DNA of 64,000 nt from a virus, in UHGV virus genome UHGV-1352914; one strand, given 5' to 3'. This document shows, piece by piece, positions 24,010 through 56,264 of this stretch. The position numbers were made by a program, and so were the translations under genes. The stretch's first letter is position 1, and every line of letters starts with the position of its first letter. The notes below the pieces were generated by a model. The model saw only the letters and a list, made by a program, of their open reading frames with translations, had not been told where the DNA came from and did not search any database.

Positions 24010-25059
24010 ATGAAAGCCGAAGATTTAGGTTGTCCTTTCTGCAAACACCATAACCTCCCGGAATCCACGGAACCCTGTGCATCCTGTGACATGTATTTCA
24101 GTAACTATGAACCAATGGATACCGTGGATACCGTGGATACCGTGGATACCGTGGATACCGGGTTTCACCGGAGTTGCTCCCACTGCATCTACCGTAAAAC
24201 CCCGCTGACGCAATTCCCCTGCATGAAATGTGCCGTCACTCCCGGACTTCCCTGCTACGCCACGGATTACCCGTGGGTAGAAGAGGAAAAGGAAGGTGAG
24301 CAGTTGCCGGAATCCATGACCCCTTGTACGAGTTGCAAGCACGCGAAAGAGGCCAAGGAAGGAGAGCAGTTGCCGGAATCCGTGGATGAACCCGTAAGCT
24401 ATGTTCTCCCCTCCTGTGATGATTGCAGGTATTTGACGAGACGGCTGGAAGAGGAACCCTGCCTCTCCTGCTACAAAGCTTCGAACTTCACTATCATCAA
24501 GGAACCCGTGGATGGCACGGATGAGAATGATGATGTCATTGAACCTTGCAATAGTTGTGTCCATAGGGATAACCTCCGTTGCAATCCTCCATGCTCTCAT
24601 TGCCGACAGGAGCGGGGAATTGAGTACCCGGAATATGAAGAGGATGAGCAGGGAATAGATTGCCCGGAATATGAAGAGGCTGAACCGGGAATAGATTGCC
24701 CAGAATATGAAGAGGATGAACCGGGAATAGATTGCCCGGAATATGAGGACAAGGCTTCTGGGTACAAAGGAATCGTGCCAAAGCATATTACCGATATGTT
24801 TATTGAACGAATGAGGGAAAATGTACTACGGCTCGCCGACGAATATAACTCCTGCCCCCGCCCCCGTTACTGCCCGTATTGTGGAGAAGTGCCGGAGGTC
24901 GTAGAGGAAACCATCTACCCCGGAGAAAAGCATTGCTACGTTGTCTGCAATGGAGCCAATCTCCTTCCTCATAGCATCAGCGTTCATGGCAGGAGCCGGG
25001 AAGAAGCGGTCGCCAACTGGAATAGCTTCGCCTTATCTCTGGCCAATAAAGGAAAATGA
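24010..25059 (+). CDS. Cys-rich multi-zinc-ribbon protein with internal tandem repeats
   Basis: ORF-track start 23941 is TTG; first ATG at 24010 (MKAEDLGCPFCKHH); >12 CxxC pairs; DTV x4.5, EGEQLPES x2, GIDCPEYEE x3.5 repeats. Confidence 0.5.
   Translation: MKAEDLGCPFCKHHNLPESTEPCASCDMYFSNYEPMDTVDTVDTVDTVDTGFHRSCSHCIYRKTPLTQFPCMKCAVTPGLPCYATDYPWVEEEKEGEQLPESMTPCTSCKHAKEAKEGEQLPESVDEPVSYVLPSCDDCRYLTRRLEEEPCLSCYKASNFTIIKEPVDGTDENDDVIEPCNSCVHRDNLRCNPPCSHCRQERGIEYPEYEEDEQGIDCPEYEEAEPGIDCPEYEEDEPGIDCPEYEDKASGYKGIVPKHITDMFIERMRENVLRLADEYNSCPRPRYCPYCGEVPEVVEETIYPGEKHCYVVCNGANLLPHSISVHGRSREEAVANWNSFALSLANKGK
24118..24160 (+). repeat. 9-bp coding tandem repeat GATACCGTG x4.5 (DTV)n
   Basis: read directly. 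Confidence 0.8.
24634..24752 (+). repeat. ~30-bp coding tandem repeat x3.5 (GIDCPEYEE units)
   Basis: GGAATAGATTGCCCGGAATATGAAGAGG repeated. Confidence 0.75.
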
Positions 25060-25246
25060 GCAACCACTGGATAACCATTAGCGGGGGAGGATTCGTCCTC
25101 CCCATTAACTCCATTCTAGTCATGGATGAAGAACTCGCCGCATAACTTACAATCAAAGACATGTACACATTAACTGGATTCCTTCTCGGCCTTTTATTCT
25201 ACTACCTCGTCGAGAACAACGATAACGACAACGACCCTATCCCTGC

Positions 25247-25723
25247 ATGAAAATAAATAGAAGAGGACTAATCGTTCATCCCGGCCTGAAGCATCCGAGA
25301 CGGCCTCGGCATAGTACTCCCCCGGTAAAGAACATCCCGAAGGGCTACATTGCCACCGGGGAGATTGCCAATAAAATCGGACGCAGTTCCGTATGGGTAA
25401 TCCACGCCCTGAACCGATTGAAGGTTGAACACGTGCGTTGCGGGCATACCATCTATTGGGAAGGGAAAGGAGCCGAGGAATATATCGGCACACAAGTGCG
25501 GGGATTATATGACAGTATCCCGGAGGGGTATGTTGATGTAGCCACCGCATTGGAGACTACGGGCTTGAAGTCGCCGGGATACCTAACTACCCTGTTTAAG
25601 CGGGGCAAAGTTCAGCGTGTGCGGTATCGTGATGAAAGCGACCCCCGTGGCCGTAGGACACGATTCGCGTACAAACTGGTTGACTTGTTGTCCCATTTAG
25701 GATTAAATGGGGAAGTCCTATGA
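25247..25723 (+). CDS. hypothetical DNA-binding protein (HTH-like)
   Basis: 158 aa basic; GYIATGEIANKIGRSSVWVIHAL resembles HTH. Confidence 0.4.
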   Translation: MKINRRGLIVHPGLKHPRRPRHSTPPVKNIPKGYIATGEIANKIGRSSVWVIHALNRLKVEHVRCGHTIYWEGKGAEEYIGTQVRGLYDSIPEGYVDVATALETTGLKSPGYLTTLFKRGKVQRVRYRDESDPRGRRTRFAYKLVDLLSHLGLNGEVL

Positions 25724-26073
25724 GAACCACGTATTCTACAACTAGAACCGTACAGAAGGGCCAGAGCAATCAACAGGCATTGCTCGGTCTCCTTCTGAAC
25801 ATTGACCTCCTTGACTCCTCCCTTACCGCGGATGGCGTCCGTGTCCTTCTGTACATGCACGCCAACGGATTTGAGAAGGAGTACGACAGTCCCTCAATTA
25901 GCGAGGGAACTCGCATCCATATATCTTCTCTTTACTACGTCCTGCGCAAGCTGGAAGAGAAAGAATATATCACGTATTCCGGGGTTAGGGGTTCGAGGAA
26001 ACAAAGCAAGAGCCAATTAACCTCGAAGGGTATCACCTTCTGCCGGGACGTCTTCCGGCCACAAACAATCTAA
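25720..26073 (+). CDS. winged-helix (MarR/PadR-like) regulator, tentative
   Basis: 117 aa; YYVLRKLEEKEYITYSG resembles wHTH recognition helix plus wing; ATGA overlap with previous. Confidence 0.4.
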   Translation: MRTTYSTTRTVQKGQSNQQALLGLLLNIDLLDSSLTADGVRVLLYMHANGFEKEYDSPSISEGTRIHISSLYYVLRKLEEKEYITYSGVRGSRKQSKSQLTSKGITFCRDVFRPQTI

Positions 26074-26081
26074 TCAACAGC

Positions 26082-26516
26082 ATGGAAACAAATAATCTCA
26101 ATGAACAGACGGAAGTCGCGGTCAAGCTCTACAACATGGCCGAACTTTCCACCCCGTGGGACCAGCTCACGGCTGACAAGAAGAAGCCCTACATGAATAT
26201 GGCGGGCAAACTAATCAAGGGAGAGGCTGACATTTTTGCCCAGCTGACGGCGAAGTACTGTGTCCAGCTTGGCGTACCTAGCAAGTACAAGACCATCATC
26301 TCCGGGATTATCAGTGCCGCCCTTGGTGCTTTAGCTATGTTTGGAGCGTTGGGGCAGAGCAGTTGTACCTACGCGGATGTGAGTAAGGACCGCGCAGTTA
26401 TCTGCAATGGCGATGGTTGTGTAATCGTTAGCCCCGGAAGGTTGACGTTTACGCAGGAACAACCTAAGAGCGAAGTTGCTCCCGTCGTTATCCCCAGCAA
26501 GGAATTCTGCAAATAG
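26082..26516 (+). CDS. hypothetical protein
   Basis: 144-aa ORF, internal hydrophobic segment. Confidence 0.4.
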   Translation: METNNLNEQTEVAVKLYNMAELSTPWDQLTADKKKPYMNMAGKLIKGEADIFAQLTAKYCVQLGVPSKYKTIISGIISAALGALAMFGALGQSSCTYADVSKDRAVICNGDGCVIVSPGRLTFTQEQPKSEVAPVVIPSKEFCK

Positions 26517-26518
26517 CT

Positions 26519-27079: not shown

Positions 27080-27091
27080 CCTCCCAAACCC

Positions 27092-27844
27092 ATGACCTAC
27101 ATCTATATATTCACTTACAGAAGAGACCAGCCAGATGCGCTGGAATGTGTACGTTGCACGAGAAAAACTCTCCCCCATGCAGTTATTACTGTAGTCGACG
27201 ATGGAAATTCCCCATGTACGGAAGGCGCAGAAACCCAGTTCCTACAGGCTGGAGCCACACATTATGAGCAAAGCCAATTTAATCGAAGGGGAAATCTTAA
27301 CGGTCCCGAATGTGTGCGAGGCATCCTCTCCTACCTAGCACAAAAGGCCGAAGACGAAGACATTGTGATAAAGCTAGATTCCGATACTTGTCTCCTTTCT
27401 ACTGACTGGATTGAAGACATGCTAGCGCAGGGGAAGAGCATGGCTGGATGTAGCTCACGCTATACTACATGGAAGAACATTTACTATATACACGGAACAT
27501 GTTATGCCATGACGGGGAAGCTGGCAAAGCAAGCATTTCAGAAATCTTTGTCTTGGACAGATTGGTCAGAAACGGCTCCGGAAGATTTAGAGATATATCG
27601 ACTGGCTTCCACTATCGTGGGAGAGGAAAACATTCTTAAAGAGTTCCCTTGGACGCCATCGACCCCTTCGGCAAGATGGACGGCATGGAACTGGGTGAGC
27701 TTCACCGTAACTCCGGAAAAGTATAAACACTTTTCGGTGGTCACCTTCGGTATGTTTATGCCCTCCTACAAGCCGAGAAGCCTTAGGGCATTAGCCATGA
27801 AGGAGTTACGTGAATGTGTCTATCCTTCTGACAATTCAATGTAG
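27092..27844 (+). CDS. GT-A fold glycosyltransferase-like protein
   Basis: 250 aa; AVITVVDDGNS and IKLDSDT (DxD) resemble family-2 glycosyltransferase signatures. Confidence 0.4.
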   Translation: MTYIYIFTYRRDQPDALECVRCTRKTLPHAVITVVDDGNSPCTEGAETQFLQAGATHYEQSQFNRRGNLNGPECVRGILSYLAQKAEDEDIVIKLDSDTCLLSTDWIEDMLAQGKSMAGCSSRYTTWKNIYYIHGTCYAMTGKLAKQAFQKSLSWTDWSETAPEDLEIYRLASTIVGEENILKEFPWTPSTPSARWTAWNWVSFTVTPEKYKHFSVVTFGMFMPSYKPRSLRALAMKELRECVYPSDNSM

Positions 27845-27895
27845 CAGGACAACTGGCTTATCGATTCCGTACATCGAAATGTCAGGACGTTAAAT

Positions 27896-27952
27896 CCCAC
27901 GGAACCCACGGAACCCACGGCCAAATGGCCACAATGGGTTCCGTGGGTTCCC
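27896..27952. repeat. imperfect cruciform: (CCCACGGAA)x3 facing GTTCCGTGGGTTCC
   Basis: left arm 27896-27920, spacer with GGCCAAATGGCC, right arm 27936-27952; intergenic. Confidence 0.7.
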
Positions 27953-28004
27953 TTGTGTCTCGCCCACAGGCGTGTGCGGCTGTGTCATACCAGTTAAAAA
28001 TTTC

Positions 28005-28032
28005 TTGACCAGAAGCTTTTCCTGTGTATGAT
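28005..28032 (+). promoter_or_regulatory. sigma70-type promoter TTGACC-N16-TATGAT with upstream TGTGTCATAC box
   Basis: -35 28005-28010, -10 28027-28032; TGTGTCATAC 27981-27990 at same distance as in minus-arm units. Confidence 0.5.
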
Positions 28033-28039
28033 AGCGGGC

Positions 28040-32187: not shown

Positions 32188-32951
32188 TGACAAGCAAAAA
32201 CAAAATTAAGGAAATACAGAAGTGGGCGGGAACTACGCCCGACGGTATCCTTGGTGATAAGACCATTGATGCTATATGGAAGAAGATACAACCGGAACCC
32301 ACGGTTTCCGTGGGACCTATGGACGTCCCGGAAACCACGGGTTCCGTGGGTCCCGTGGAATCCCCGGCAGAGATTATCCGCAAAGGAATGGCCAAGAAGA
32401 TTCTCAACATGGAGGACTACAAGATTACAGGTCCCGATTCTCTGCGCGTAACTCGCCTCCCCTCTGGTGACGGCGGTGGCAAGTGGGAGATTGCAGGTAT
32501 CTGTGATGGGATTGAACCCAAGGAATTCAATCTAATCAAATCCATGATGGACCGGGGCGACAGGGATGCGGCATGGGAGGAATGCCTCCGCTATGTTCTC
32601 GCCAATACGGAACCGTTGGTTGCCAAGGGAGTTGCAGGATGCTACGCCATTGAGTTCATGCTTCGCGACATGACCTTCAACATGGGTGTGGCGGGAACGA
32701 CTAAGGTTGTCCAGCGCATGCTCGACATTGATATTGACGGCAAGTGGGGGAAAAATACCCAAGCCAAATGGACGGACGCCATTCAATCATGGGAGGAAAG
32801 CGAAGTCCTCGATATGCTGGACCGCGCTTGTCGTGCCCGCTATTGCTCCATTGTAAGAGCCAATCCGGTGAAGGCGAAGTTTCTCTCCGGCTGGTCCAAC
32901 CGATGCAATGCGCGACATGCTTACGCTCTTACTCTGTTGTCAAGGAAATAA
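32187..32951 (+). CDS. peptidoglycan-binding domain protein, putative endolysin
   Basis: 254 aa; N-terminal IQKWAGTTPDGILGDKTIDAIWKK matches PG_binding_1-type motif; followed by TM/coiled-coil gene. Confidence 0.5.
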   Translation: MTSKNKIKEIQKWAGTTPDGILGDKTIDAIWKKIQPEPTVSVGPMDVPETTGSVGPVESPAEIIRKGMAKKILNMEDYKITGPDSLRVTRLPSGDGGGKWEIAGICDGIEPKEFNLIKSMMDRGDRDAAWEECLRYVLANTEPLVAKGVAGCYAIEFMLRDMTFNMGVAGTTKVVQRMLDIDIDGKWGKNTQAKWTDAIQSWEESEVLDMLDRACRARYCSIVRANPVKAKFLSGWSNRCNARHAYALTLLSRK

Positions 32952-32964
32952 ACAGGGAATTTTC

Positions 32965-32993
32965 TTGACCCGTTAAACCCCAAATGATAACAT
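32965..32993 (+). promoter_or_regulatory. sigma70-type promoter TTGACC-N17-TAACAT plus leader hairpin
   Basis: hairpin GGCGGCA...TGCCGCC 32995-33018 ends at ATG 33019. Confidence 0.45.
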
Positions 32994-47700: not shown

Positions 47701-48402
47701 GCAGGACTGAACCCCTCGTTCGGCAGTGGACATACATGGCAAGTCCTTGAACGATTCGCGACGGTTGCCAATAAAAAGATTCCCTTCTACGGCTGGGCAG
47801 TCAAGTCAGGTAAACAAGCGTTTAGCGATACACCTGACATGAGTGGCGCGGCATACGGGTTACAGTCCTTGGGTGCGGGCCTCCGTCGTCCGAAGGATTT
47901 GACCGAAGCCCTTGCCGCCGGGTTAAAGAATGCCAACGCGGCGGTCACTAAGTCGAAGCGAATGAGCATTCTGCGTCCGGACTTCTACAAGAGAATGGAA
48001 TCCGGGATGGATGTGGAACTCATGGAAGCCGTGGAAACCGCGGATGCCGTGAAGAATTTCACCAAGCTAGTCAATAGTGTCCGGTTCGTTACGGAAATTA
48101 CAAACATGCTTGACCCGTCCATCCGTTCGGAAGTTCTGGCCTCCGTGATTGAGAGTTCCGGTATGAGTGCCAAGACCTACGGCGCGGCCATGCAGGGCAT
48201 CATGCCCTACGTCATTAGCCCGCAAGCAGGACGTGAAGCTATCGCGAAGCTCAACCGTGAATTGCAGAAGTCTAATACCACGGACGAGGGCAAACGCCTA
48301 ATCGAAGAGCAGAAGCAACTCATTATCAACCTCATGCGGAAGGGTAGCATTCCGATTGATGGGGCATTGAGTACAGAGGAAATTCATAATCGGATGAAGT
48401 AG
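38737..48402 (+). CDS. giant 3221-aa virion-associated/internal (ejection-type) polyvalent protein; function unresolved
   Basis: uninterrupted 9.67-kb ORF; Ala-rich, coiled-coil-rich; HExxH zincin-like motif GTVLHEAIHLIDRH; TEPTA coding repeats 42566-42660; own promoter 38657-38684. Confidence 0.6.
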   Translation: MAIDFSTANMSDFAPTSASSIAREQRAAERHATWQETQKQKQEDRAQKALDREQRLAEKKQTRAEKAAGATAEFDDYVFKSIDDFQKKQTEQADRARNVEWETKSRAHTEQGWKTTAEKADIDVLNKGNRGFTFEGIDYMKDYVDRGEDALVDLKAAARGDSDAIKKLTNNTGIVAVSSSELSPQHPAFLSRFGFGMGEDGNPVVTEKFLAIAADRNRNAKAVAKSIANTMEKARKDYLNSHLDVGTGKPKAEAIETAPIAYTAEEIESIINTIRREDIDNYRAAKSLYTKHRAASTENVQKKTPSQTNVGELGVGEFSDSAPSFTGNVFAELANLSKSPSKMFRLVRDYGDYLSRNGDIYIPGHQTSKKEKPVEDRIREQIEAADKIVRRLEEDYTGLPYLELRDAILNPEAAASTLLSLVPNADMDAIRARAEVLAKDLRRKKDRPLTFETDEQIGMSEAILEAVATRFPGVPKSTLYQAGVTNLIQGYVAKATPRGTLMDAVNGAMANYRSTAGQIADVLTFQPGDSVGKTSDPLSTMEWRKGTRRGTWEYGVPGGPSFDVGPERLKEYMAQYHIESTRDALNSLSHAARMGDLGVGRGSLFAYNPHTKEVDTNATLELNPNALYDNKLMDKSIEALRASGADEGLINRTIEKFQNLRTKSAQELVKDNIALDETLGTLRDTWLGSGMRFNPVWTETMKHLDKYLSFKNFYNEQKEAGKSDEDILSAWQEKGQAHINPILRGFQIGTHKAIDLGTGAAYGALLFAQNAVGSRAAMEHTRTLWDQLNKKQEAEAELVRGNIIADYTAEIANLGYQMVATAGAGKIGGLAGRALERTALTKFARAMANVAARRAEALVPAARPGLAGRLSGTIQRNLNNLAALSLERAGAGAGVNLTIISQVAPNAYSDIFYTIYDREMEGKEATAENTNRAQSIASRHALFGAALVSTGSTLINNRAGMDSFMRKVVGAKNLRGQSPVQTLEQKMARWRSKPWAEMNTKEKTFAVASYLYSTSMAAVEGATEELADEFQEWAFTELVKNGEISESSIATTDQVISGAIKTAFLGGIGGYVGSQLAGEGNIRFQTEAAPTLDVKDATSILPDITKDASNIIEETGKAITKDNVPESLVETGKRVIEIAGEKGDAAEVAREWVDKSIAHESLAVSDETRKAWVEGATRMGISNFTQFRNLVERASEIYTYEGSAAASSFMAEAINDLPNTLSFPNKENLDTMRTMLSEALDAMGDRVQVIEVDDDLSIITTGDEDLDAALHVINGLTEPTATTEPKESPTTAEPTATAEPTATAELTARKERDQAIAPVTNMVDTGVVTPEAVETVDTLDAAITSFDPNTGAWLSSGSPLDRGTKLVSLNEMTGINAPLVTSNTGETIVVSPHASMYNMGEGGTPSTKWGDRVSALNLPSDGTGVNAYGILSDLRVKASPAQAAAIDGVLRALHAAGLDVAIRATNAPANIASPASITYKNGTDGKLVGGVIDLYMDRDNVIESVTGTVLHEAIHLIDRHLRATNADYSQRMDKIRSAVAENYNQIIDSLTAMYEASVDINEMNAIAALASDLNYGLRGPDEFASVAFSNPVMNFMIAEVSGDNVTLTDLARYAEAAGGRRPVHVRLIEWLKDLIRDVRQTADDMDGTTAAKNAAEWDSYVDRVADITPGKWFDMPRTPSWKVDDTDYTMSREVDYFNPLAYETDMTQRLSFGLGAEIIGTNAGNWVTSVKNVWQGVSKGWDKAGINVKSEEQKLIVLEQMTNVNAAYERSIKRIGKIGDMLQRRADSLGWDATTRKKWSKSILDMSGNMDNDIDPETVARINAEAQAEVRQHEQTRDFRIALAKKTVTDAVNRHAEAVRLANSLALNSEGRLEINEMMRRIKDMSVKGYGAMLDKTVALPMLSQQIHNVLSDLGSRISATGDANLETTYFGLARDTQNYLADMINEVDSPFSMDELLDRWSNLRNDYLYAESTNHPAIAPMIQDISRARAEAKQIIREANDDFHAATKRAGVTRAGVTTPAGSVWLKRDNAILDARRQKQAEYMAKRDAAEQWLLSQGVVGQLVHNVIADSRKEIAATQISIAKLIGDSRMANNAAEMNYLHRTYMAVGRHAGDFTRTMKDIIAHPNGELAQKYDGLTKLLQEAAIAHAEAHQTELSENISQVLDNMQALAALHDELKLPLVSAPTGASSNYKLLFEGVAKNYRTREILDFIQNNFGRVQMLADLRDGHNISAMYNKAMSMIAQADYRTKSKMAEMKETLDMKARDSFLADVFSSLPGNTIADKIGGLESPASVASEVNKAIPTIPTSAIDQIWNAPNMNAAERLDKTLNLLRGQAGILMGANNMGNVISATDLKVLQYPELSRLAVNDAMKAIDEVLTKKRTNEDALAQRKRLPEWQRKAMYELSDLTIGDAIGTLQNTISMQSKIAVNQLLADEYATVLKAQGVVVPPDSASRTPDMVEISLKNTKNALNGLYADKDVADALYHIYRPSDDIMNSRTDDYKKVRKYWQKSGKGQEWWSKAGGLANLSVLIASPNSTLRNLYGTVAQMTHAGALPFTGSKDIANLVGDWVQLRKLWWLSQGKDLGSQASADRLLAAEDRYNEKIRYWQELGLLDAGQGEFLRNVWKSDEFSKMAGEFEEVNEDSFFKLAEALNEKQERTKGEVAKDAAKMAGKVVAWPVKTMAFAYGLPDAAAKIVLFTNQRAIADTQLKVQLARAKGKANPNARDQILLDASQTDQSWNAYVDRYTAHMVKSLLPTGSRTPSWVKTLNIVAAPFFMFQYHTAQSVVYNLGHAIGEGVDGVWAINNGMKKEGAYLLGRAFVRIAGSVGTISATSAVSSWVARQIITSVLGDDDDRKIIDDAEVMRKLADSGLIPDYDKFGDLIGIIDMKRHEFEYLNLEYMNPFKTIKVLAKTLPSLFMDMDVDKWGMNKVAELKNLLENTVLEESLLLNAASELFNEEDFNYKHSLSGDESVNVLPAVGNAILLAAGLNPSFGSGHTWQVLERFATVANKKIPFYGWAVKSGKQAFSDTPDMSGAAYGLQSLGAGLRRPKDLTEALAAGLKNANAAVTKSKRMSILRPDFYKRMESGMDVELMEAVETADAVKNFTKLVNSVRFVTEITNMLDPSIRSEVLASVIESSGMSAKTYGAAMQGIMPYVISPQAGREAIAKLNRELQKSNTTDEGKRLIEEQKQLIINLMRKGSIPIDGALSTEEIHNRMK
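42566..42660 (+). repeat. 18-bp coding tandem repeat (GCGGAACCCACGGCTACC) x~4 inside giant gene
   Basis: encodes TEPTA(T/E) units. Confidence 0.8.
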
Positions 48403-48417: not shown

Positions 48418-48458
48418 TTGACCTTCGGGGGCATGGGAGATATACTTCTCCTATGCCC
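48418..48458 (+). promoter_or_regulatory. promoter TTGACC-N17-TATACT with -10 in hairpin loop; doubles as terminator-like structure after giant gene
   Basis: IR GGGCATGGGAGA 48429-48440 / TCTCCTATGCCC 48447-48458 then TCTTTTCG. Confidence 0.45.
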
Positions 48459-49058
48459 TCTTTTCGTATAGTCCCCAATCATGTTATGGTCACCCCTCCG
48501 GGTGGCTGGAAGTTTGTTGTCCCTGAATCCATGAGTGTCAGGCTCAAGGGAACCAAGGTTTCCGCGGGTTCACTGGAACAACTTCGCAAATCCGTTGCCC
48601 GTCTCTTCATGAATAATGGAGAACCCTTTCAGGTTGCGCTCTTTGAATCAGAACTCTGTTCCTCTCTTCCTCCCCAATACTGTACTACCTGCGGGGATAA
48701 GGGGATTGAATGGAGGGAGTATGAACCCATGAGTGCCAAGAAGATACTGGCCTTCTTTAGTACTATGGTTCTCTGGTATCGACGGGGGCACAGATTTGTA
48801 GACGAGGCAGAAGCCCGCCGCCGCTATGCTATCTGTTCCTCCTGTCCTTATGCTACCTCTACGCCCCCCCCGGATTTAGAGAAGCAAGGGTGCGCCACAT
48901 GTGGAGCCGAAGGAGCTGGCCGCAAATTCCTCAAGGAAAAAATTTCCGGGCAAGCTGACCTGACCAACGGGGAGGCTCCTCTCTATTGTACCTTATGCGG
49001 TTGCGACCTATCAGTAAAGGCTCACTTCGATATTGAATCTGACTGCTGGCTAAAATAG
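48453..49058 (+). CDS. Cys-rich putative zinc-binding protein
   Basis: 201 aa; CTTCGDKG, CSSCPY, CATCGAEG, CTLCGCD pairs; ATG is 7 nt after promoter -10 and inside the hairpin arm. Confidence 0.45.
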   Translation: MPSFRIVPNHVMVTPPGGWKFVVPESMSVRLKGTKVSAGSLEQLRKSVARLFMNNGEPFQVALFESELCSSLPPQYCTTCGDKGIEWREYEPMSAKKILAFFSTMVLWYRRGHRFVDEAEARRRYAICSSCPYATSTPPPDLEKQGCATCGAEGAGRKFLKEKISGQADLTNGEAPLYCTLCGCDLSVKAHFDIESDCWLK

Positions 49059-49496: not shown

Positions 49497-49584
49497 ACCC
49501 GCAACGACATCATTCTGTTTGGACTGTAAGTTGTTTGGGTTCTAAGCGAAAACCCCGGAAGAGAATTCCTTCCGGGGTTTTTGT
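49497..49584 (+). ncRNA. candidate ~85-nt small RNA between convergent gene blocks
   Basis: predicted TSS ~49500 from orphan promoter; GAACCC...GGGTTC stem then terminator hairpin; no ORF. Confidence 0.25.
49553..49584. terminator. bidirectional rho-independent terminator at convergence point
   Basis: CCCCGGAAG-AGAATTC-CTTCCGGGG flanked by AAAA upstream and TTTTTG downstream. Confidence 0.65.
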
Positions 49585-49585
49585 A

Positions 49586-50092
49586 TTACTTCTGTTTCGC
49601 TTCAAGAGATTCTATTAGCAGGGTAATCTCGCCGATACATCGTTGCAATTCCGATGCCGGGTTTACCTCCACCAGCTTATCATGTGCCCAGATATAGAAG
49701 AGCCGTACCAGAATGGAATCTTCGGGGCTACGTTGGTAGCTATGGCTCATGACTGTACGCCTGAACTGTTCAAGGATAAGGTAAAGGTCAAACGTTTCGA
49801 ACACCTTGGACCAGTGTTTGGCGTGGTATTCGAGATACCACCTCGCCTTCTTGAGGTCTTCAATACGGTTCTTCTTGTACTGTGACCGCATCAAATACTT
49901 GACGGCGTTCCCTAACGCGAAGGGAAGCTTGCCAGTAATTTCTATGGTCTCGATTCCGCTGGGGTGGGAGGTGTAATGCTTCGGGTGGTTGACGGCATCG
50001 TTCATGGATTCCTTTCCTTCCGGCAGGTCGGGGAAAGCCTGTGAGTTTACCTTGGTTGAAACGATTGCGTTGATTGCTTCGTGAGCGTGCAT
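49586..50092 (-). CDS. DUF3310-like phage protein (tentative)
   Basis: 168 aa; HPKHY and GNAVKYLMR motifs as I recall them for DUF3310; stop abuts bidirectional terminator. Confidence 0.4.
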   Translation of the reverse strand: MHAHEAINAIVSTKVNSQAFPDLPEGKESMNDAVNHPKHYTSHPSGIETIEITGKLPFALGNAVKYLMRSQYKKNRIEDLKKARWYLEYHAKHWSKVFETFDLYLILEQFRRTVMSHSYQRSPEDSILVRLFYIWAHDKLVEVNPASELQRCIGEITLLIESLEAKQK

Positions 50093-50093
50093 G

Positions 50094-50699
50094 TTATTTG
50101 GTGAGGTGCTTGTAAATTTGTTTGTTGATATATTTGCGAATAGACATCTTGGCTATGACGAAGAGGTGGGGAGAGGGTAGAGTTAAACATCCTTCTTTGA
50201 CTGTCCACTTCCTTGTAATTCTCCGTGCGAACTTGTACGCCTTCCTGCATATTTCCAGAGCCGCAGAGGAACTTCCAACAAGAGCCACAGGAACTCTACT
50301 GTTGATGAAATAGCCATGAAATTTGAACTGGAAGAAAAAGGAGTTGTCCCCCTTAATCCAGCTAGGGGTTTCATTTGGGGTAGTTTCTCCAACTGAACGT
50401 GTGGATATTTTACTGGACGCAAGGATGCGACCATAGGTTAGTTGTTCCTCGGTCAGTTGTTTATTCGACCGGAGAGAGGCATGGATAAGTTGCTTATGTT
50501 CAGGCATGAAGCGAGACCGAAACTTGTTAGCTCTTACCTCCATCAAGAACTTCCTTTGCTTCGCGGGGCTATCTCGATACCAGTAAAATTTGTCTCCGTA
50601 TTTCTTGCACTTGAACTTTCCTCTTCGACGCTTCCCATGAGGGTGTTTCATGTTGGCCGCCATCTGTTCCCGATACTTCTTGAGACTTATTTTTCCCAT
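50094..50699 (-). CDS. hypothetical basic protein
   Basis: 201 aa, Lys/Arg-rich N-terminus. Confidence 0.4.
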   Translation of the reverse strand: MGKISLKKYREQMAANMKHPHGKRRRGKFKCKKYGDKFYWYRDSPAKQRKFLMEVRANKFRSRFMPEHKQLIHASLRSNKQLTEEQLTYGRILASSKISTRSVGETTPNETPSWIKGDNSFFFQFKFHGYFINSRVPVALVGSSSAALEICRKAYKFARRITRKWTVKEGCLTLPSPHLFVIAKMSIRKYINKQIYKHLTK

Positions 50700-51358
50700 A
50701 GTTCTGGAACGAAATGGATTCGGTTAGTATCAACTGGGATGTCCTTGAATGCCCATGCGAGGCCATACTTCAATTCCATCCTCTGGCGCAGGGCCAGAAG
50801 GAGCGCACGGATTTGCGGCTGGGCCGCGCCGTCCAATCGCATACGGAAGATGTGCCTCCACTCGCGGAGGTTAGCAGTCACTCCAATGCATGTGGCCGTG
50901 CAGTTCGGAAGCAACCCCCGCGCCTCTTCGGGAGGCAGTCCTCCTTGGATAAGTTCCACGTACTTCTCCGCAAGGTTCTGGCAGGTATCCTTATACTCTT
51001 CAATGGTCTTCGGGTCAACCTTCTCGTCGCTAAAGAACTGCGGACGGATGAAGCAAATGGTTCCCTTCCGGGAGTAGTTGACGTACCGCTGGCTCTCCAT
51101 GCTGACGCTCATGTGTCTGTGTCGGACAAGCTGATGCGTCACCGCTCTATCCGTCGAGAAGACTGCTGGGATGTTGATGTGCTCGATGACACTCTCATGC
51201 CCGCGATTAATGATACGGGAGAGAAACGCAATGGGGTCACCCTTCGGTTCGCTTTTATAGCAGATACGACCCATTATCTCTGCGGCCTCCACCTGCTTAT
51301 CTATTTCCGATTTAGTTAGCGGAAGAATGACTTCTTGATTTGTCCAAAGAACGTTCAT
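50687..51358 (-). CDS. thyX: flavin-dependent thymidylate synthase
   Basis: 223 aa; ThyX signature RHRxxxxxxxS present as LVRHRHMSVSMESQRY. Confidence 0.75.
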   Translation of the reverse strand: MNVLWTNQEVILPLTKSEIDKQVEAAEIMGRICYKSEPKGDPIAFLSRIINRGHESVIEHINIPAVFSTDRAVTHQLVRHRHMSVSMESQRYVNYSRKGTICFIRPQFFSDEKVDPKTIEEYKDTCQNLAEKYVELIQGGLPPEEARGLLPNCTATCIGVTANLREWRHIFRMRLDGAAQPQIRALLLALRQRMELKYGLAWAFKDIPVDTNRIHFVPELWEK

Positions 51359-51632
51359 GAATTAAATGTTTGGCTTCGTAGTTTGCAAGTTCAAGAGTGG
51401 GGAAGGTCCATCCATACTGGCCCCACTCACTGGTGCTGGGGAGGTATTCGTCTCCGGCTTTTACTTTGATAAAATCATTGTCCGCTTTGTGCTGACGGAT
51501 GATGACGACCTCATAATTGTTTACCTTCCCGCTTCCTTTGTGGGTTAGTTCGTATATGGCTACTCCCGCTTCACGGAAAATGAGCCTACATAAGAAGGGG
51601 TTGCGAGTAAATTCAGTCGGAATCTTTTTCAT
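51312..51632 (-). CDS. hypothetical protein
   Basis: 106-aa ORF. Confidence 0.4.
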   Translation of the reverse strand: MKKIPTEFTRNPFLCRLIFREAGVAIYELTHKGSGKVNNYEVVIIRQHKADNDFIKVKAGDEYLPSTSEWGQYGWTFPTLELANYEAKHLIHERSLDKSRSHSSAN

Positions 51633-53610
51633 TTGTGATTGATGGATTAAGCATTTGCATGAATTCTTCTTCTGTGATTGAAGGAATCTTGTGGAGCTTC
51701 GCTATCTTTTGCTTATGTTCTCCGGGTTCCTTACCGACAACTAGATAGTTGGTCTTCCTTGACACGTTCTCCTTGACCGTGCCTCCCATGTCCTGAACGA
51801 GCAGGTTATATACATGGCGAGGCTGGGACAGGATTCCCGTGATGACGAAGTTCACACCCTTTAAGGCCGTGCTCTTTGGTACATTGCCTTCGACATTAGG
51901 GATGTCTCCCGTCATAACCATTGTCGTCATCTCATTCCACGTAGGCACGGTCTCCATGTAGTTCAGAATTGCCTCGGTCATCAGGGGGCCGAACTCCGCA
52001 TGACGCTTGCTCCTTAAATCTTCGGGGAAGAGAGTAAGGAACGTGTAGAGATTGGGGTACATGCGGGAGAGATTTTCCGCACGGGTACTACCGACATGAG
52101 GAATCTCCATTGCAGTAATCCATTGAGCAAGAGACGCATGGTGCTTCCGTTCCTCCACGATTTCAAGGAATCCCCGGTATCCTTGGGTTCCGGGGATTCC
52201 GTTAATGAGATTGTCCATCATGCCGGACATGAGAAGCAGGAACGGGTGATGGAGGTAAGCAGTCTGCGCCGTCGGCGGTTCCACATCAGCCTCTCCCTTG
52301 ATTAGTTTGTCCGCAATCATGCGAGAGAATACGAGGCCCATGCCGTCAATATCCAGTGCGTTCTTTCCGCATGCGTATTCCAGCTTGGCCGCTACCTTAT
52401 CCCTGCACAACGGATTGATGCAGAAGGTGTCGAGGCCACAAGAGTATAGAGTGGAGCCGCAACATGGACAGGTCAGAGGGACAACGGAATCCGTATTGCC
52501 ACAGCCGCGAACCTTGCGGACATAGGGGATAATCTCTCCTGCCTTAACCACCTCCACGGTATCCCCGATATGGAAGGACGCCGCATTGGATGCGTTGGAG
52601 AGGGAGGCACGGGATACATTGGTTCCACCAATCTTCACCGTATCAAATACCGCAACCGGGGTAAGAACTCCGGTTCTGCCTACTTGCCAAATGACATCCC
52701 GGAGGGTAGTCTCTACGCCCTGCGGGTTGAACTTAAAGGCTACCGCGTCCTTCGGGTGATGGGCAGTAGCCTCCCCTGCCGCGGCAATGGCGTTCTTCTG
52801 GTTCAACTTAAACACAATACCATCAGTAGGATAGGCGATGTCGTCACGCAGGTACTTGGCCATGTCCCGGATGCATTCATCCGTCAGGGCTTCGCCTTCT
52901 GGCCATTCATTGGGAAGGGTTACGAGGTCAAACATTTCCATCAGCCATCCATGCAGTTCCATGCGGGATTCAATCCCATCCGGCATGGGGCTTGCATCAA
53001 ACGGGATGAAGGTAATGAGCCAGTCAGACCACTTGAGATTATTATTTCGGAGTTGACCAACGGCACAGGCGCGGAGGTTGGAGTACCCCATGCTTTCCAC
53101 CCGCCCCTCTTCACTCTTAGCTACAACCACTTCCCCACGGATAGCTCCCGTATAGTTCCCATAACTTGGTGGGACCATATAGAGAACCTTATCAAGGGGA
53201 ATGACCTCCCCCTCGGTTCCGTTGCCACGAGTAACGGCACGAACGAGCCGCCCATTTTCGATGTACAGAACGAGGGTAAGGCCATCATACTTCGGTTCAA
53301 CCACGACATCCCTCCCCGCAACCCAGCCTCGAAGCTGGTCCATGCCAATCCCATCCTTGCCCTCATGAATCTTGGCGAGAGACAGGACGGGATTGGGATG
53401 CCGGAAGGTCTTGGCTCCGCATTGTACGTCGTCCCCTAGGCTATCGAGTTCCTTGGATTCCGGGGAACGGGAACGCAGTTCTTCAACCAGCGTATCGTAA
53501 ACCGTGTCGGGGAGAAGGGTTTTCCCTTCGTGGTAGTAGGAGCTATTGAAGATAGCAATCACTTCTTCCAACTCCATCACGCTCGTGTTTTTAGGATTGC
53601 CTATTTCCAT
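51613..53610 (-). CDS. ligA: NAD-dependent DNA ligase
   Basis: 665 aa; adenylation KxDG motif EPKYDGLTLVLYIENGRLVRAVTRGNGTEGE; Zn-finger Cys (CPCCGS...C...C); C-terminal BRCT-like segment (NYLVVGKEPGEHKQKIAKL). Confidence 0.8.
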   Translation of the reverse strand: MEIGNPKNTSVMELEEVIAIFNSSYYHEGKTLLPDTVYDTLVEELRSRSPESKELDSLGDDVQCGAKTFRHPNPVLSLAKIHEGKDGIGMDQLRGWVAGRDVVVEPKYDGLTLVLYIENGRLVRAVTRGNGTEGEVIPLDKVLYMVPPSYGNYTGAIRGEVVVAKSEEGRVESMGYSNLRACAVGQLRNNNLKWSDWLITFIPFDASPMPDGIESRMELHGWLMEMFDLVTLPNEWPEGEALTDECIRDMAKYLRDDIAYPTDGIVFKLNQKNAIAAAGEATAHHPKDAVAFKFNPQGVETTLRDVIWQVGRTGVLTPVAVFDTVKIGGTNVSRASLSNASNAASFHIGDTVEVVKAGEIIPYVRKVRGCGNTDSVVPLTCPCCGSTLYSCGLDTFCINPLCRDKVAAKLEYACGKNALDIDGMGLVFSRMIADKLIKGEADVEPPTAQTAYLHHPFLLLMSGMMDNLINGIPGTQGYRGFLEIVEERKHHASLAQWITAMEIPHVGSTRAENLSRMYPNLYTFLTLFPEDLRSKRHAEFGPLMTEAILNYMETVPTWNEMTTMVMTGDIPNVEGNVPKSTALKGVNFVITGILSQPRHVYNLLVQDMGGTVKENVSRKTNYLVVGKEPGEHKQKIAKLHKIPSITEEEFMQMLNPSITNEKDSD

Positions 53611-53848
53611 TGTCGTCTTCCTTTCTTACTGGAAGAATACCTTCGCTAATCAAATTGTCAAGTTCTTTCTCTACTATCTTGTGACATTCCGAAGGGGGCC
53701 TCAGTACAAATTCCAATATGGTAACATACTCCATCCTTAAGGGAACCGTGTTATGCTCCTGTGCTTTCTTCACTAGGTTCTTACTGATTGTCCGAATAAT
53801 TTTCTGTACAAGTTTACGATATGTTTCCAGTTCGCTAGTCGTTTCCAT
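53591..53848 (-). CDS. hypothetical protein
   Basis: 85 aa; 20-nt overlap with ligA start. Confidence 0.4.
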   Translation of the reverse strand: METTSELETYRKLVQKIIRTISKNLVKKAQEHNTVPLRMEYVTILEFVLRPPSECHKIVEKELDNLISEGILPVRKEDDNGNRQS

Positions 53849-53862
53849 AATTCAAATGTGGT

Positions 53863-54462
53863 TTATGCTTCGTGGGGCAGGATAATTTTACGGGTGTTGG
53901 CTTCCTTTTCTGCGAGTTCGGATTTGTCCACGAAGGTGAGGGTGGAATGTTCCATTAGGCTCATGGATATTACGTTACTTGCCACGGAGAAGAGACGGAA
54001 TGCGGAGATGCCTCCCTTCTCTTCATCGAGGCGGTCCGGGTCATTCTTACTGGCATACGCTACCAAGATGTGAATGGCCATGAAGAGGACGAGGGCCTTA
54101 ATCATGACATGGGAATCGGTAAAGATATTGCATGCCTTGCCGGGGTTCTCAAGCTCCTGCATAAAGGCAATGTATTCCTTTACAGTGACGAGGTTCTTGG
54201 CGACTTCTCCCATGATGAACTGAACACCAGCCAGCGGCGGGGGTTCAATATCAAAGATGTTGGAGGCGTAGTCTCCTAGTTCAATAGCCTTCTCGGCAAC
54301 CGCGTCCGCGGACGCATCAATGGGCAGGTTGAAGGCAGGGACTGCATCCCACTCCCGTTGCAGTCTTTCCTTCAACATGACAGACTTCGGTTCGGCGAGA
54401 ATGCGGGCTACCTCTTCCTGAATAGAATCGAGGCTCAATTTGTTTGGTTCTGTAGTGTCCAT
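53863..54462 (-). CDS. hypothetical protein
   Basis: 199-aa acidic ORF. Confidence 0.4.
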   Translation of the reverse strand: MDTTEPNKLSLDSIQEEVARILAEPKSVMLKERLQREWDAVPAFNLPIDASADAVAEKAIELGDYASNIFDIEPPPLAGVQFIMGEVAKNLVTVKEYIAFMQELENPGKACNIFTDSHVMIKALVLFMAIHILVAYASKNDPDRLDEEKGGISAFRLFSVASNVISMSLMEHSTLTFVDKSELAEKEANTRKIILPHEA

Positions 54463-54484
54463 GTGCGTATAATAGTATTTGGGT

Positions 54485-54709
54485 TTAATTATTTGTCCAC
54501 GAAGATTGTTGCGAAAATTGTGACAGCAGAGAAAGGAGTTCGTCCTTTGCGTCCTCTTCGCTATATTGGGGAGAGGTGGCGAGGTGACAGCTTATGCATT
54601 CCCAATAAGGGGCGGGTCTCCATTCCCGTTCATAGTCGTCATAGTAATAGACGTCATTGCTTAGCCTCATGAGGCTTCCGCACAGAGGGCATTCATATTC
54701 TGGGTCCAT
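54485..54709 (-). CDS. small Zn-ribbon protein
   Basis: 74 aa; CPLCGS...CISCH. Confidence 0.4.
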   Translation of the reverse strand: MDPEYECPLCGSLMRLSNDVYYYDDYEREWRPAPYWECISCHLATSPQYSEEDAKDELLSLLSQFSQQSSWTNN

Positions 54710-54726
54710 ACTTCTTTCTGGATTTA

Positions 54727-55263
54727 TTACTTGTCAAGCTCTGTTTCTTCGTCTCTGTCTATCTCGTTCAGGAGATTGCAGAGGCGTCCCATTTTGATTG
54801 TTCCCTCCCATGAAGGAACGATGTGTAGGGGCTGGTTCTCCTTGAAGTCCCAAAGAACTCCGTCGATAACTTTGAACCGATGATGCAGGTCTATCGGCCT
54901 AATGAGAAGGAGGGAGGAAGTGTTGACTACTTTCGATGCTCCTGTTCTTTCATCCTTAACGCTGATAAGACTGGAATCTGTCTCGTCTTCCGTTACAATC
55001 CATGTACCTTTTCGGTCTTTACAAATCACCACGTCCCCCGTCTTAAACTCCCGAAGAGGTGCGGGGTAACATTTGATTGCCTCTTCATGACGGACAACTC
55101 CCTCACCCGGAGGGAAAGAATTTATGACCTTGTATCTGTAGTGGTGCGGGGAAAGTTCGATTACCTGCCCCACGTAATACTGTTTGTCCAGTTCTCTGAC
55201 AATGTAGTCACCGGGGTCGATAGCCTCGTCGATAAATTTTTGCAAGTCTTTGGGTTCTAACAT
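54727..55263 (-). CDS. hypothetical protein
   Basis: 178-aa ORF. Confidence 0.4.
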   Translation of the reverse strand: MLEPKDLQKFIDEAIDPGDYIVRELDKQYYVGQVIELSPHHYRYKVINSFPPGEGVVRHEEAIKCYPAPLREFKTGDVVICKDRKGTWIVTEDETDSSLISVKDERTGASKVVNTSSLLLIRPIDLHHRFKVIDGVLWDFKENQPLHIVPSWEGTIKMGRLCNLLNEIDRDEETELDK

Positions 55264-55306
55264 ATTCTTGATAGAAGTGGTTATAACTTTTAGGATTTCG
55301 TTTGGG

Positions 55307-55879
55307 TTAAACTCTCAAATTGCATTGGAAGGAACCTTTGTGGAGCGAGAGGATTTCCTCATTGGACAGGGTCCCCATGTTCAGCCGCATGGCGTCGGGA
55401 GCCATCGTCAAAATGGGAGTGCCTTCAATGGACCGGGGGAAGGACATCTTGGTGGCGAGAGCTAGCGAGGGGCGGGCCTTAAACATAGCGTCGTAAAGTG
55501 TTTCGCTATACCTGACGGCAGAATGTCCTCCGAGATAAATTTCGGTAGCATACATGCAATCCTTGCCGCGCTTCTCTTTAGGGTAGTCGAGCCGGAGGAT
55601 GCGCACCGAGTGTTCCACGTATGCCTTCAGGTCATAAAGTGTGCGGATGATGAAGTGGGTGTCGGTCATAGTTACCTTCCCGATTCCAAAGGCTTCAATC
55701 AGGGACTTGGTCCGGGCAGACTGGAGACTATTATCCTCCGGATTCCGTGGAATATAGAGTTCAGCGGGTGTCTTGGAGGGAAGGATAATAGTATCCCAAA
55801 GTTCCCCGGTGCTTCCTCCGTTATTTCTGGTCCAAGAATGAAGGAGCATGAGTTGTTGAGCGAGTGCGAGGGGTTTCAT
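55307..55879 (-). CDS. hypothetical protein
   Basis: 190 aa; preceded by class-II conserved upstream motif (55880-55925). Confidence 0.45.
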   Translation of the reverse strand: MKPLALAQQLMLLHSWTRNNGGSTGELWDTIILPSKTPAELYIPRNPEDNSLQSARTKSLIEAFGIGKVTMTDTHFIIRTLYDLKAYVEHSVRILRLDYPKEKRGKDCMYATEIYLGGHSAVRYSETLYDAMFKARPSLALATKMSFPRSIEGTPILTMAPDAMRLNMGTLSNEEILSLHKGSFQCNLRV

Positions 55880-55925
55880 AATCGTTTGGTTTTTGTAGGG
55901 CTAGGTGTGGATTCTAGATGTTAAG
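55880..55925 (-). promoter_or_regulatory. class-II conserved upstream motif (TCTAGAANCCNCACATAGCCCTACAAA-N-ATG), copy 1 of 5
   Basis: near-identical copies at 56265-56312, 56632-56663, 57018-57047, 57654-57690. Confidence 0.4.
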
Positions 55926-56264
55926 TTTCCAGCGGAGAGTTTGATACCCGGCTTCCGTGGGTTCCGTGGGTGGCTCAAGGTATAAGAAGATTCCTTTACG
56001 ATTGACGACAACGGTTGCGCTATCCGGACTAAAGGCAAGTAGATAGACATGAAGGTATCGGAGGACATCCTCATGGGGGAGCCTATAGGTACGAAGCGGA
56101 TAGTTCTGTTCAATCATCCTTCTAAGCTTAGTAAGCTTCTTTAGTGCCGACTTCCTAAGGACCGCAGTCACCGCAAGGCCTCCAGCACTTCCAGCAAGTT
56201 TTGACAGAGCAAAGTCCGAATCATTATCGGTATCAATTTGTGAGGTGAATAGAGTAATTTCCAT
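55914..56264 (-). CDS. WKLNI-family paralogue A
   Basis: 116 aa; C-terminal ...TLRWKLNI and core YPLRTYRLPH..LRYLHVYL shared with 56293..56631; contains PTEPTE coding CCGTGG repeat. Confidence 0.5.
   Translation of the reverse strand: MEITLFTSQIDTDNDSDFALSKLAGSAGGLAVTAVLRKSALKKLTKLRRMIEQNYPLRTYRLPHEDVLRYLHVYLLAFSPDSATVVVNRKGIFLYLEPPTEPTEAGYQTLRWKLNI

Follow-up and report, generated by a model that had tools for sequence, protein, structure and literature searches.

UHGV virus genome UHGV-1352914 was analyzed over a single stretch of 64,000 nucleotides (nt; hereafter the window), which represents most of the ∼69–70 kb genome of an uncultivated phage, and we focused on a family of short CCNNGG-centred tandem repeats that recurs in its genes and its non-coding DNA. 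Plus-strand genes span ∼134 to 49461 and include those for DNA polymerase A, a helicase, an exonuclease, the large terminase, a RuvC-like resolvase, an HNH nuclease and an endolysin, and minus-strand genes from 49586 to 63538 encode, among others, a nucleotide kinase, a ThyA-like protein and an NAD-dependent ligase, as well as numerous small early proteins. A giant open reading frame (ORF; 38737–48402, 3221 amino acids (aa)) carries at least four of the arrays and has no Pfam, PHROG or PDB sequence match. The window has no nucleotide match among 50,697 phage records, where protein matches are just 24–27% identical, and no relative was found in bacterial genomes. The ∼40 relatives available, most of which come from a single metagenome, are IMG/VR contigs reaching 73 kb in length; one viral scan with an endolysin alignment added no new distant relatives to these. 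In one relative's genome, ∼5.5 kb joins the end of the window to its start, and contains a gene of primase-helicase type as well as ∼3 kb of repeat-rich non-coding DNA.

The unit of these repeats is a 9-nt module, CC-NN-GG-N-W-N, written in this way because the spacer codon ends in A or T throughout the long arrays, and CCACGG/CCGTGG is one spelling of it among several. The genome contains ∼25 short arrays or loci of the module, mostly in flexible protein linkers, with some in non-coding hairpins. The original prediction had described CCACGG/CCGTGG repeats at seven loci, all of which exist with coordinates that are exact or off by a few bases; according to Tandem Repeats Finder (TRF), the unit is 18 nt rather than 14 at 37974–38031, and 18 nt (×3.7) rather than 16 at 42594–42659. 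The sites within genes are as follows:

22141–22155, plus strand: CCGGGGATTCCGGGG inside gene 21855–22247, with a 19-nt stretch identical to a non-coding copy at 63888.

24116–24160, plus strand: (TGGATACCG) ×5.0 at 100% identity by TRF, equivalent to four CCGTGGATA modules and encoding (DTV)4, in gene 23941–25059.

32295–32367, plus strand: chained modules in the interdomain linker (aa 35–62) of the endolysin.

32299–32313, plus strand: perfect hairpin CCACGGTTTCCGTGG in the endolysin gene.

32335–32367, plus strand: four-module array CCACGGGTT CCGTGGGTC CCGTGGAAT CCCCGG in the endolysin gene.

36905–36937, plus strand: four modules, CCACGGTAT CCCCGGATT CCGTGGAAA CCTTGG, encoding ATVSPDSVETLD in gene 36760–37503.

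37945–38031, plus strand: CCACGGTTCCCATGG followed by the 18-nt unit ACGGCATCCACGGGAACG ×3.2 (37974–38031), encoding (TASTGT)n in gene 37506–38633.

42566–42660, plus strand: main array of the giant ORF (∼aa 1277–1308), with units including GAACCCACG and GCTACCGCG and encoding EPT/ATT/EPK/ESP/ATA tripeptides.

42727–42760, plus strand: second giant-ORF array, CCGTGGAAA CCGTGGATA CCTTGG, encoding EAVETVDTLD.

45608–45622, plus strand: stable doublet CCCCGGCATCCGTGG in the giant ORF.

48029–48043, plus strand: stable doublet CCGTGGAAACCGCGG in the giant ORF, encoding EAVETAD.

48553–48567, plus strand: stable doublet CCAAGGTTTCCGCGG in gene 48453–49058.

52172–52195, minus strand: three modules in the NAD-ligase gene, here in the other frame, which gives the Gly-X-Y-like peptide IPGTQGYRG; together they form an 11-bp inverted repeat.

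55953–55971, minus strand: (CCCACGGAA) ×2.1 on the sense strand of gene 55914–56264, encoding EPPTEPTEAG.

7141–7155, plus strand: short doublet CCCCGGAACCCACGG in the RuvC-like gene, in frame 3 at the DPGTHG catalytic motif, which is probably due to chance or to a functional peptide; the short doublets at positions 9159, 11552, 15201, 15369, 21809, 26577 and 53451 have the same uncertain status.

The strong signal in these data is the phasing of the module. When all 91 CCACGG sites were aligned, CC recurred at +9/+10 and GG at +13/+14 on either side, and adjacent modules (CCNNGGNNNCCNNGG) numbered 40, against 1.88 ± 1.17 expected from dinucleotide shuffles. Coding sequence holds 35 such doublets, compared to 3.45 ± 1.76 under permutation of synonymous codons and 1.93 under permutation of codon order, with ∼3–4 coding doublets thus expected by chance. 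The original prediction had allowed that codon or amino-acid repeats alone might explain the tandem copies; the permutations show that they do not, and its central claim, that one repeat family is shared by a non-coding hairpin and several unrelated proteins, survives this codon-aware null. Distances between CCNNGG sites peak at 9, 18, 27, 36, 45 and 54 nt (40, 20, 14, 12, 13 and 8 pairs) and at no multiple of 3 that is not also a multiple of 9, with 0, 4 and 1 pairs at 12, 15 and 21 nt. The TRF periods of the arrays are 9, 18, 27 and 36, all head-to-tail and multiples of 3, and the 9-bp spacing is seen in non-coding DNA too. The total number of CCNNGG sites in coding sequence is not enriched (287, with 302 expected); the signal is in-phase clustering, not word abundance.

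The predicted over-representation of CCACGG itself holds against shuffles (91 on both strands, 34.9 ± 5.7 in dinucleotide shuffles) and against codon permutations (87 coding sites, with 43.9 ± 5.9 under within-gene synonymous permutation and 37.1 ± 6.2 under codon-order permutation), and CCCACGGAAC occurs 7 times where 0.11 is expected, but CCACGG comes no higher than fifth in the hexamer ranking, on a par with codon-driven words (GAAGAA, for example), and is unexceptional under a maximal-order Markov model. Lone CCACGG/CCGTGG sites outside arrays are in modest excess (56, compared to 40.5 ± 5.9), and neither CCACGG nor CCNNGG behaves as a fixed word strongly over-represented in dispersed single copies, in the manner of uptake sequences or Chi-like sites. 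As a motif, CCACGG/CCGTGG is thus real but too narrow, the stronger regularity being the 9-nt phasing of the general CCNNGG module.

The dominance of certain spellings follows from which sites the phage avoids. In CCNNGG the common NN are GT (49), GG (47), CC (44), AC (42), GC (32), AA (30), TT (29), GA (16) and TC (15), and the rare ones are TG (3), CA (2), AT, CG and TA (1 each) and AG and CT (0 each). Avoided sites, as observed/expected counts, include GATC (0/193), CCWGG (7/131), GCAGC (0/90), GAGTC (5/66), CTCAG (4/58), CCCGGG (1/37), CCATGG (1/31), GGCGGA (1/37) and CTGAAG (7/42), and CTCGAG, CGTACG, GCCGGC and CATATG are each absent from the window. Largely because the phage avoids the restriction sites CCWGG, CCATGG and CCCGGG, the modules are dominated by CCACGG, CCGTGG, CCCCGG, CCGGGG and CCGCGG, and the motif originally noticed is the subset of module spellings permitted in this phage. 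A sister clade keeps CCWGG and CCATGG and lacks GATC, and its arrays contain CCATGG and CCCTGG modules.

Within genes, 32 of the 35 coding doublets read as xCC-NNG-Gxx, with the remaining 3 in the glycine frame, so that a module codes for a tripeptide of the form [Pro/Thr/Ser/Ala]-[any]-[Glu/Asp/Gly/Ala/Val], and array peptides include DTVDTVDTV, PEPTVSVGPMDVPETTGSVGPVESP, EPTATAEPTATA, EAVETVDTLD and EPPTEPTE. It had been claimed that the repeats always read through ACG-G threonine codons; 58 of the 87 coding CCACGG sites do share the frame, but these split equally between ACG (Thr) and GTG (Val), the sense strand carrying 29 CCACGG and 29 CCGTGG. The coding arrays lie in disordered or interdomain linkers, as in the endolysin, where the linker lies between the two peptidoglycan-binding domains found and the array fills the stretch from a PG_binding_1 match at aa 4–30 to the remainder of the protein.

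The skeleton is a property of the DNA and not of the peptide. When units are chosen by peptide class alone ([PTSA][TVPAG][EDAGV]), 15% of 462 singletons have the skeleton, compared to 38% of units in runs of two and 84% of units in runs of at least three, and in peptide-defined arrays of at least three units the first codon ends in C in 23/26 cases, the second in G in 25/26 and the third in A or T in 26/26. Where a module encodes threonine, position 1 uses ACC and position 2 uses ACG. The middle codon of the giant-gene units can begin with any of the four bases and its synonymous third base is C in every skeleton-type unit, while units with one skeleton position broken are rare, at 1–2 alleles each. 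In the endolysin linkers of relatives, NN, spacers and residues vary with CC and GG fixed, even in a group at 51–57% protein identity. Neighbor-dependent codon bias is small (NNG before G in 29% of cases, ∼20% otherwise), and together with the synonymous and codon-order permutations and the dose-response with run length, this argues against codon usage or peptide composition as the sole cause, which was therefore rejected.

Comparison with ∼30 close relatives shows that the long arrays change in 9- or 3-nt steps, the 3-nt steps occurring in the endolysin and 37945 arrays. The endolysin linker has 19 alleles in 30 loci, ranging over 75–87 nt, with CCNNGG modules in every relative, including those at 51–57% identity. 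The locus at 37945 ranges over 78–123 nt and uses other unit types, and the locus at 24116 carries varying numbers of CCACGG-type modules in place of the window's CCGTGGATA ×4; the C-terminus encoded by this gene has a weak match, under the Pfam cut-off, to the Lar-like restriction-alleviation family. The main giant-gene array has 21–22 alleles that differ in 9-nt steps and draw on 18 in-phase 9-mers (three of them flank, 11 with the full skeleton), and the window and one relative (L198) differ in unit order although their flanks are 99% identical. The short arrays at 36905, 45608, 48029 and 48553 are constant in length and position across relatives, and at 36905, where both are kept in 58 loci, variation falls mostly at NN and the spacer. 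Among the explanations originally suggested, a slippage or recombination hot motif is therefore the best supported, as near-identical relatives differ in copy number and unit order by 9- or 3-nt steps.

At greater distances, the sister clade (terminase 85–89% identical) has homogeneous runs of up to eight units, e.g. CCACGGATA ×8, which presumably are recent expansions. A distant relative (terminase 59% identical) could be compared over 31 kb corresponding to about −2 to 29 kb of the window, and there it has 0 doublets, compared to 13 in window positions 1–29000, at equal CCNNGG density (46 per 10 kb), with a flat NN spectrum and no period-9 repeats. Its orthologues are 28–40% identical and thus too diverged to judge whether the arrays are insertions. 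Repeats at orthologous positions, which had been proposed as a check, are thus found in relatives at several array loci but are absent from the 31 kb examined in this distant one. Across IMG/VR, 106 of 157 five-module (CCNNGG ×5) arrays are true collagen-like repeats (Gly-X-Gln and similar) and most others are homogeneous simple repeats; heterogeneous arrays in a non-glycine frame belong mainly to this clade, and unrelated viruses have a few of the EPT/EPM type.

Identity between the arrays of different genes covers just 11–19 nt of modules and never extends into the flanks, and each locus has its own alphabet of ∼18 units, of which 0–3 are common between loci. Within the window, the 42727 array has 21 nt in common with the 48029 array, and the 55953 array shares an identical 18-mer with the intergenic hairpin at 27896–27952. 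A 12-mer without the skeleton, CGCAAGCGACGG, which encodes (P/T)QAT, is found in relatives within the arrays of four genes, namely those at 24 kb and 38 kb, the giant gene and the primase-helicase gene, and keeps to a single codon phase; its presence is polymorphic among genomes, it is absent from the window, and its distribution fits copying between arrays rather than an autonomous element. The suggestion of a small repeat element inserted at linkers thus keeps some support from this 12-mer, but a discrete mobile element, such as a miniature inverted-repeat transposable element or other insertion, is not supported, as shared flanks and conserved ends are lacking and unit alphabets are locus-specific.

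The primase-helicase-like gene, which lies outside the window, also carries an array in relatives, with CCCCGGATT followed by four CCACGG modules and the peptide STDSTDSTD, at 15680–15745 of relative L225 (reverse complement) and ∼2.3 kb before the window start in relative L004. From reading the sequence by eye, this array seems to be placed between two domains.

The module also occurs in non-coding DNA, at sites to which no strand is assigned:

157–171: promoter-proximal variant ACCGGGATTCCGGGG within the inverted repeat GGCCCTG...CAGGGCC, kept in L225.

27896–27952: intergenic module hairpin with left arm CCCACGGAA ×2.8 (27896–27920) and inverted right arm GGGTTCCGTGGGTTCC (27936–27952).

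63624–63700: CCCCGGATTCCCCGG followed by (CCGGTTCCCCGGTAT) ×4.9, in an origin-like repeat-rich region.

63852–63902: doublets CCGGGGTTGCCGGGG and CCGGGGATTCCGGGG, the latter being the inverted partner of the 63624 site, ∼260 bp apart.

The intergenic hairpin lies between the end of gene 27092–27844 and a promoter at 28005–28032, and has a predicted stem of ∼17–20 bp with an RNA fold of −49.2 kcal/mol (z = −4.9). It is kept in ∼30 relatives with two or three copies in the left arm, and where the upstream gene differs in relatives, the mosaic junction falls exactly at its left edge. The hairpin resembles an intrinsic terminator in being a GC-rich stem–loop at the end of a transcription unit but lacks the U-rich tract (its tail is CCCTTGTGTCTCGCC), and a terminator scan that called a hairpin at 22307 did not call this one; it is probably a transcript-end or processing structure. 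A ∼27-nt unit, GTGTCATACCCACTAGCGTGTGCGGTT, occupies 27958–27995 between the hairpin and the promoter and is present in 0 to at least 3 tandem copies in relatives. Terminator-like hairpins with CCCCGG...CCGGGG stems followed by T-runs are found at ∼22307–22342, which is the one called by the scan, and at ∼49553–49585, where the position between convergent gene blocks means that the hairpin could act in both directions.

The other non-coding copies adjoin candidate regulatory DNA. The variant at 157–171 is directly 3′ of a promoter-like TTGACA-N17-TATATT read from the sequence at 120–148, and the origin-like region contains a ∼23-nt site and its inverted copy. At the place equivalent to 63624, L225 carries some six copies of the 9-nt unit CCCCGGTTC, and several relatives have inverted CCCCGGAATCCCCGGAAC / GTTCCGGGGRTTCCGGGG pairs on either side of the palindrome GTTCCATGTGGAAC. 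Only the CCGGGG-type doublets recur with fixed spacing in non-coding regulatory DNA, as expected of operators or iterons, both at these window sites and in the early and origin-like regions of relatives. An operator-like motif, TACCGGGGATTCCGGGGGT, can be read at 22139–22157, 63618–63640 and 63884–63906, with a variant at 157–171, and 19 nt are identical between the coding and the origin-like copies. The repeat-rich non-coding region as a whole measures ∼3 kb, comprising 63539–64000 and its continuation at 11900–15200 of L225 (reverse complement), and holds TA and GA runs, CTTTTGG ×3, ∼22-bp iterons (TAAGTSCNGYCTAAC...) and two ∼50-nt elements (TAGCGGACC...CGATTAAATTC). Many relatives' contigs begin ∼11.5 kb upstream of the terminase gene, and the region may be the origin or the genome end.

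We hold, with middling confidence, that the repeats are a lineage-specific, self-propagating family of in-frame 9-nt minisatellites, with the skeleton CC-NN-GG-N-W-N, which is tolerated in linkers. The alleles of relatives show that arrays expand, contract and are reshuffled between genomes. Arrays would lengthen and shorten through replication slippage and through unequal recombination between co-infecting genomes, and if only modules with an intact skeleton are efficiently re-copied, the skeleton would persist as NN, spacers and encoded amino acids drifted. From time to time a unit would be copied between the arrays of different genes, which would preserve the reading frame because all arrays are in one frame. 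Protein function would merely filter the sites at which arrays are found, leaving them in linkers, and inverted modules in non-coding DNA would give rise to GC-rich stems. It is possible that the skeleton is favored through GC clamps for misalignment, or through recognition by an enzyme or other protein.

Several results weigh against this explanation. Direct arrays lack a stable single-strand structure (z = +0.8 to +1.9); since they fold worse than shuffles, hairpin-assisted expansion by analogy with triplet repeats was rejected as a general cause. The flanking DNA is itself polymorphic, with 11–17 alleles per 100 nt, so the hypervariability of the arrays is only relative, and part of the alleles were assembled from metagenomes, so that assembly errors among them are conceivable. 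Units are not homogenized between loci within a genome (Jaccard 0.019, compared to 0.021 with genomes permuted, p = 0.75), which makes genome-wide concerted evolution negative by this test and, taken alone, insufficient to account for a skeleton common to ∼25 loci. In the short arrays of stable length, synonymous skeleton positions have a diversity of 0.10, compared to 0.145–0.19 at flanking third positions (n = 64 sites), indicating that constraint there is weak or absent; strong purifying selection on skeleton positions was not seen in these arrays and is apparent only in the unit alphabet of the giant gene.

The alternative that survives best, though we consider it unlikely, is that the arrays are cis-acting sites at which a phage or host protein recognizes CC-NN-GG at 9-bp spacing in the style of ribbon-helix-helix proteins, with the non-coding copies serving as operators or iterons and the coding copies as extra sites where proteins tolerate them. 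A precedent exists in the ParB protein of pCXC100, a ribbon-helix-helix protein that binds a centromere of nine contiguous, unspaced and weakly conserved 9-bp repeats (PMC3074162), and the pattern here is similar in its contiguous, weakly conserved 9-bp units and its non-coding copies near promoters and the origin-like region. In accordance with binding, CCGGGG-type doublets adjoin a promoter (157–171) and lie in the origin-like region (63624–63902), relatives have them as inverted pairs around GTTCCATGTGGAAC and L225 has the repeated CCCCGGTTC units, a 19-nt site is identical in a gene (22141) and in non-coding DNA, the 9-bp spacing persists outside genes, and the synonymous skeleton positions of the giant-gene units are invariant. 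Unlike the pCXC100 centromere, however, most arrays here are intragenic and reshuffled among relatives. NN and the spacer vary freely in coding arrays, CCNNGG is not enriched in total, constraint at the stable doublets is weak, and the arrays sit mid-gene without an apparent promoter link, as judged by reading and not by a formal test. Pfam and PHROGs scans of the proteins also gave no candidate binding protein: looking for a methyltransferase, transposase, recombinase or small DNA-binding protein yielded no more than the polymerase, helicase, exonuclease and terminase, the RuvC-like resolvase and HNH nuclease, the ligase, the ThyA-like protein and the nucleotide kinase. Considered by class of site, protein binding is plausible from the placement of the CCGGGG-type doublets by promoters and the origin-like region, and unlikely at the variable coding arrays.

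A more specific proposal, which we regard as doubtful, is that the skeleton is the recognition site of a putative lineage-specific protein—either a binder, or a nuclease or recombinase acting at the central NN—that would both occupy the CCGGGG doublets of early promoters and the origin and drive the in-frame gain, loss and shuffling of 9-nt linker modules. If true, this would be a built-in linker-diversifying system in a lytic phage.

It is quite improbable that the modules act at the RNA level, with self-complementary CC..GG units forming mRNA structure at domain boundaries that slows ribosomes to aid co-translational folding or serves as an RNase III or stability element. Mixed-orientation arrays do fold well as single-stranded DNA (endolysin z = −2.1, 36905 z = −2.7, ligase z = −4.0), the intergenic hairpin is predicted to be very stable as RNA, and the arrays lie at domain linkers, but the longest and most variable arrays (24116, 42566, 42727 and 55953) are the ones less structured than shuffles, and the balanced sense orientation of CCACGG and CCGTGG argues against a strand-specific signal.

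Highly improbable, too, is that the arrays were left behind by a mobile or enzymatic process with a 9-bp stagger or a CC-NN-GG crossover site, such as transposase-type target duplication or a site-specific nuclease or recombinase, by which modules would be both created and shuffled. The strict 9-bp period, non-coding DNA included, would suit such a process, as would a skeleton that is symmetric as both CCNNGG and GGNWNCC, the fairly free assortment of NN types with spacer types in the giant gene and one unit common to four loci, and the phage's own enzymes include a ligase, an exonuclease, a RuvC-like resolvase and an HNH nuclease. Against it, no transposase or recombinase was detected among the proteins scanned, the arrays have neither element boundaries nor flank homology, and the endolysin and 37945 arrays change by 3 nt as well. 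Least probable of all, and already largely refuted, is that the pattern is a mere by-product of Pro/Thr/Ser/Ala-x-Glu/Asp linkers, preferred NCC codons and tandem duplication: Thr, Pro, Ala and Ser are each encoded most often by NCC, most coding sites share one frame, CCACGG stands level with codon-driven hexamers and is unexceptional under the maximal-order Markov model, and EPT/EPM arrays are spelled alike in unrelated viruses, but synonymous permutation yields far too few doublets, most singletons of the same peptide class lack the skeleton, threonine is spelled according to module position, arrays exist in non-coding DNA, and the distant relative has none in 31 kb at equal CCNNGG density.

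Set beside known systems, the minisatellite family that we favor has partial counterparts. Variable-number tandem repeats (VNTRs) or minisatellites with variant units, and Pro/Thr-rich interdomain linkers, are known kinds. The arrays resemble them in their in-frame head-to-tail units, their polymorphism of copy number and order in close strains and their place in flexible, low-complexity linkers, and the long arrays have both tandem units in multiples of 3 and copy-number polymorphism at the same locus, as VNTRs do. Unlike VNTRs, ∼25 loci in a 70-kb genome share one skeleton and one frame while their exact units differ, and the skeleton is held at synonymous positions. DNA uptake sequences are over-represented oligomers tolerated in permissive parts of coding sequence and paired as terminator stems. 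Here, too, DNA-level words occur in coding and non-coding DNA, in both orientations and as inverted pairs in post-gene hairpins, but there is no fixed 10–12-mer, CCNNGG is not enriched and the signal is tandem phasing. Collagen-like phage repeats are considered sites of recombination and length variation. The 9-bp Gly-X-Y repeats of receptor-binding and fibre genes are similar in their 9-nt period, their separation of domains and their occurrence in phage structural proteins, and the antisense strand of the modules would spell Gly-X-Y. According to a passage of PMC5601072 that cites Duplessis and Moineau 2001, collagen-like repeats separate distinct domains in the antireceptors of Streptococcus thermophilus phages. 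In contrast to such repeats, 32 of 35 coding arrays here have no glycine periodicity, with glycine not recurring at every third residue, and the modules are found in many unrelated proteins (the endolysin; the primase-helicase in relatives) and in non-coding DNA. A likeness to the DnaA box (GTGGATA), to Hin/Gin crossover sites (AACC-NN-GGTT) or to the RuvC cleavage consensus (WTT/S) was considered and dropped as a poor fit, and literature searches for CCNNGG or 9-bp linker repeats in phages turned up no account of such a pattern.

Apart from the modules, the window contains two in-frame tandem repeats without the CC..GG skeleton. One, at 15386–15453, has an 18-nt unit ×3.8 whose TRF consensus, GACGAAAACCAGAACGAC, would translate as the acidic DENQND; the other, at 24615–24746, has a 36-nt unit ×3.7. 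Strong sigma-70-type promoters are read on the plus strand at 89–148, 16340–16375, 22355–22385, 27995–28032 and 32955–32993, with an extended AAATTTCTTGAC −35 region, and a conserved early promoter, CTATTTGACAAAGTAATAAAATCTGCTAAAGT, on the minus strand at 58500–59600. Because the ATG at 28041 is a few bases past the −10 of the promoter at 28005–28032, the gene that appears to start there may be nearly leaderless. In the minus-strand stretch 49586–51358, a gene without a PHROG match (50094–50699) separates the nucleotide kinase from a neighbouring thymidylate-synthase-like gene, and this proximity hints that the phage DNA could contain modified bases.

Tandem repeats in phages are usually handled locus by locus, as collagen-like repeats or Pro/Thr linkers. 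Here, ∼25 loci follow one DNA grammar in one frame, which reaches into regulatory DNA and in which synonymous positions are held while residues change. For motif counts in phages this carries a caution, in that they need nulls aware both of codons and of restriction-site avoidance, and the arrays themselves can be used to tell strains of this uncultivated clade apart. Should the grammar stem from a copying mechanism or from a binding protein, it would offer a handle on how phage proteins gain and resize their interdomain linkers, and on the DNA-level constraints that shape coding regions.

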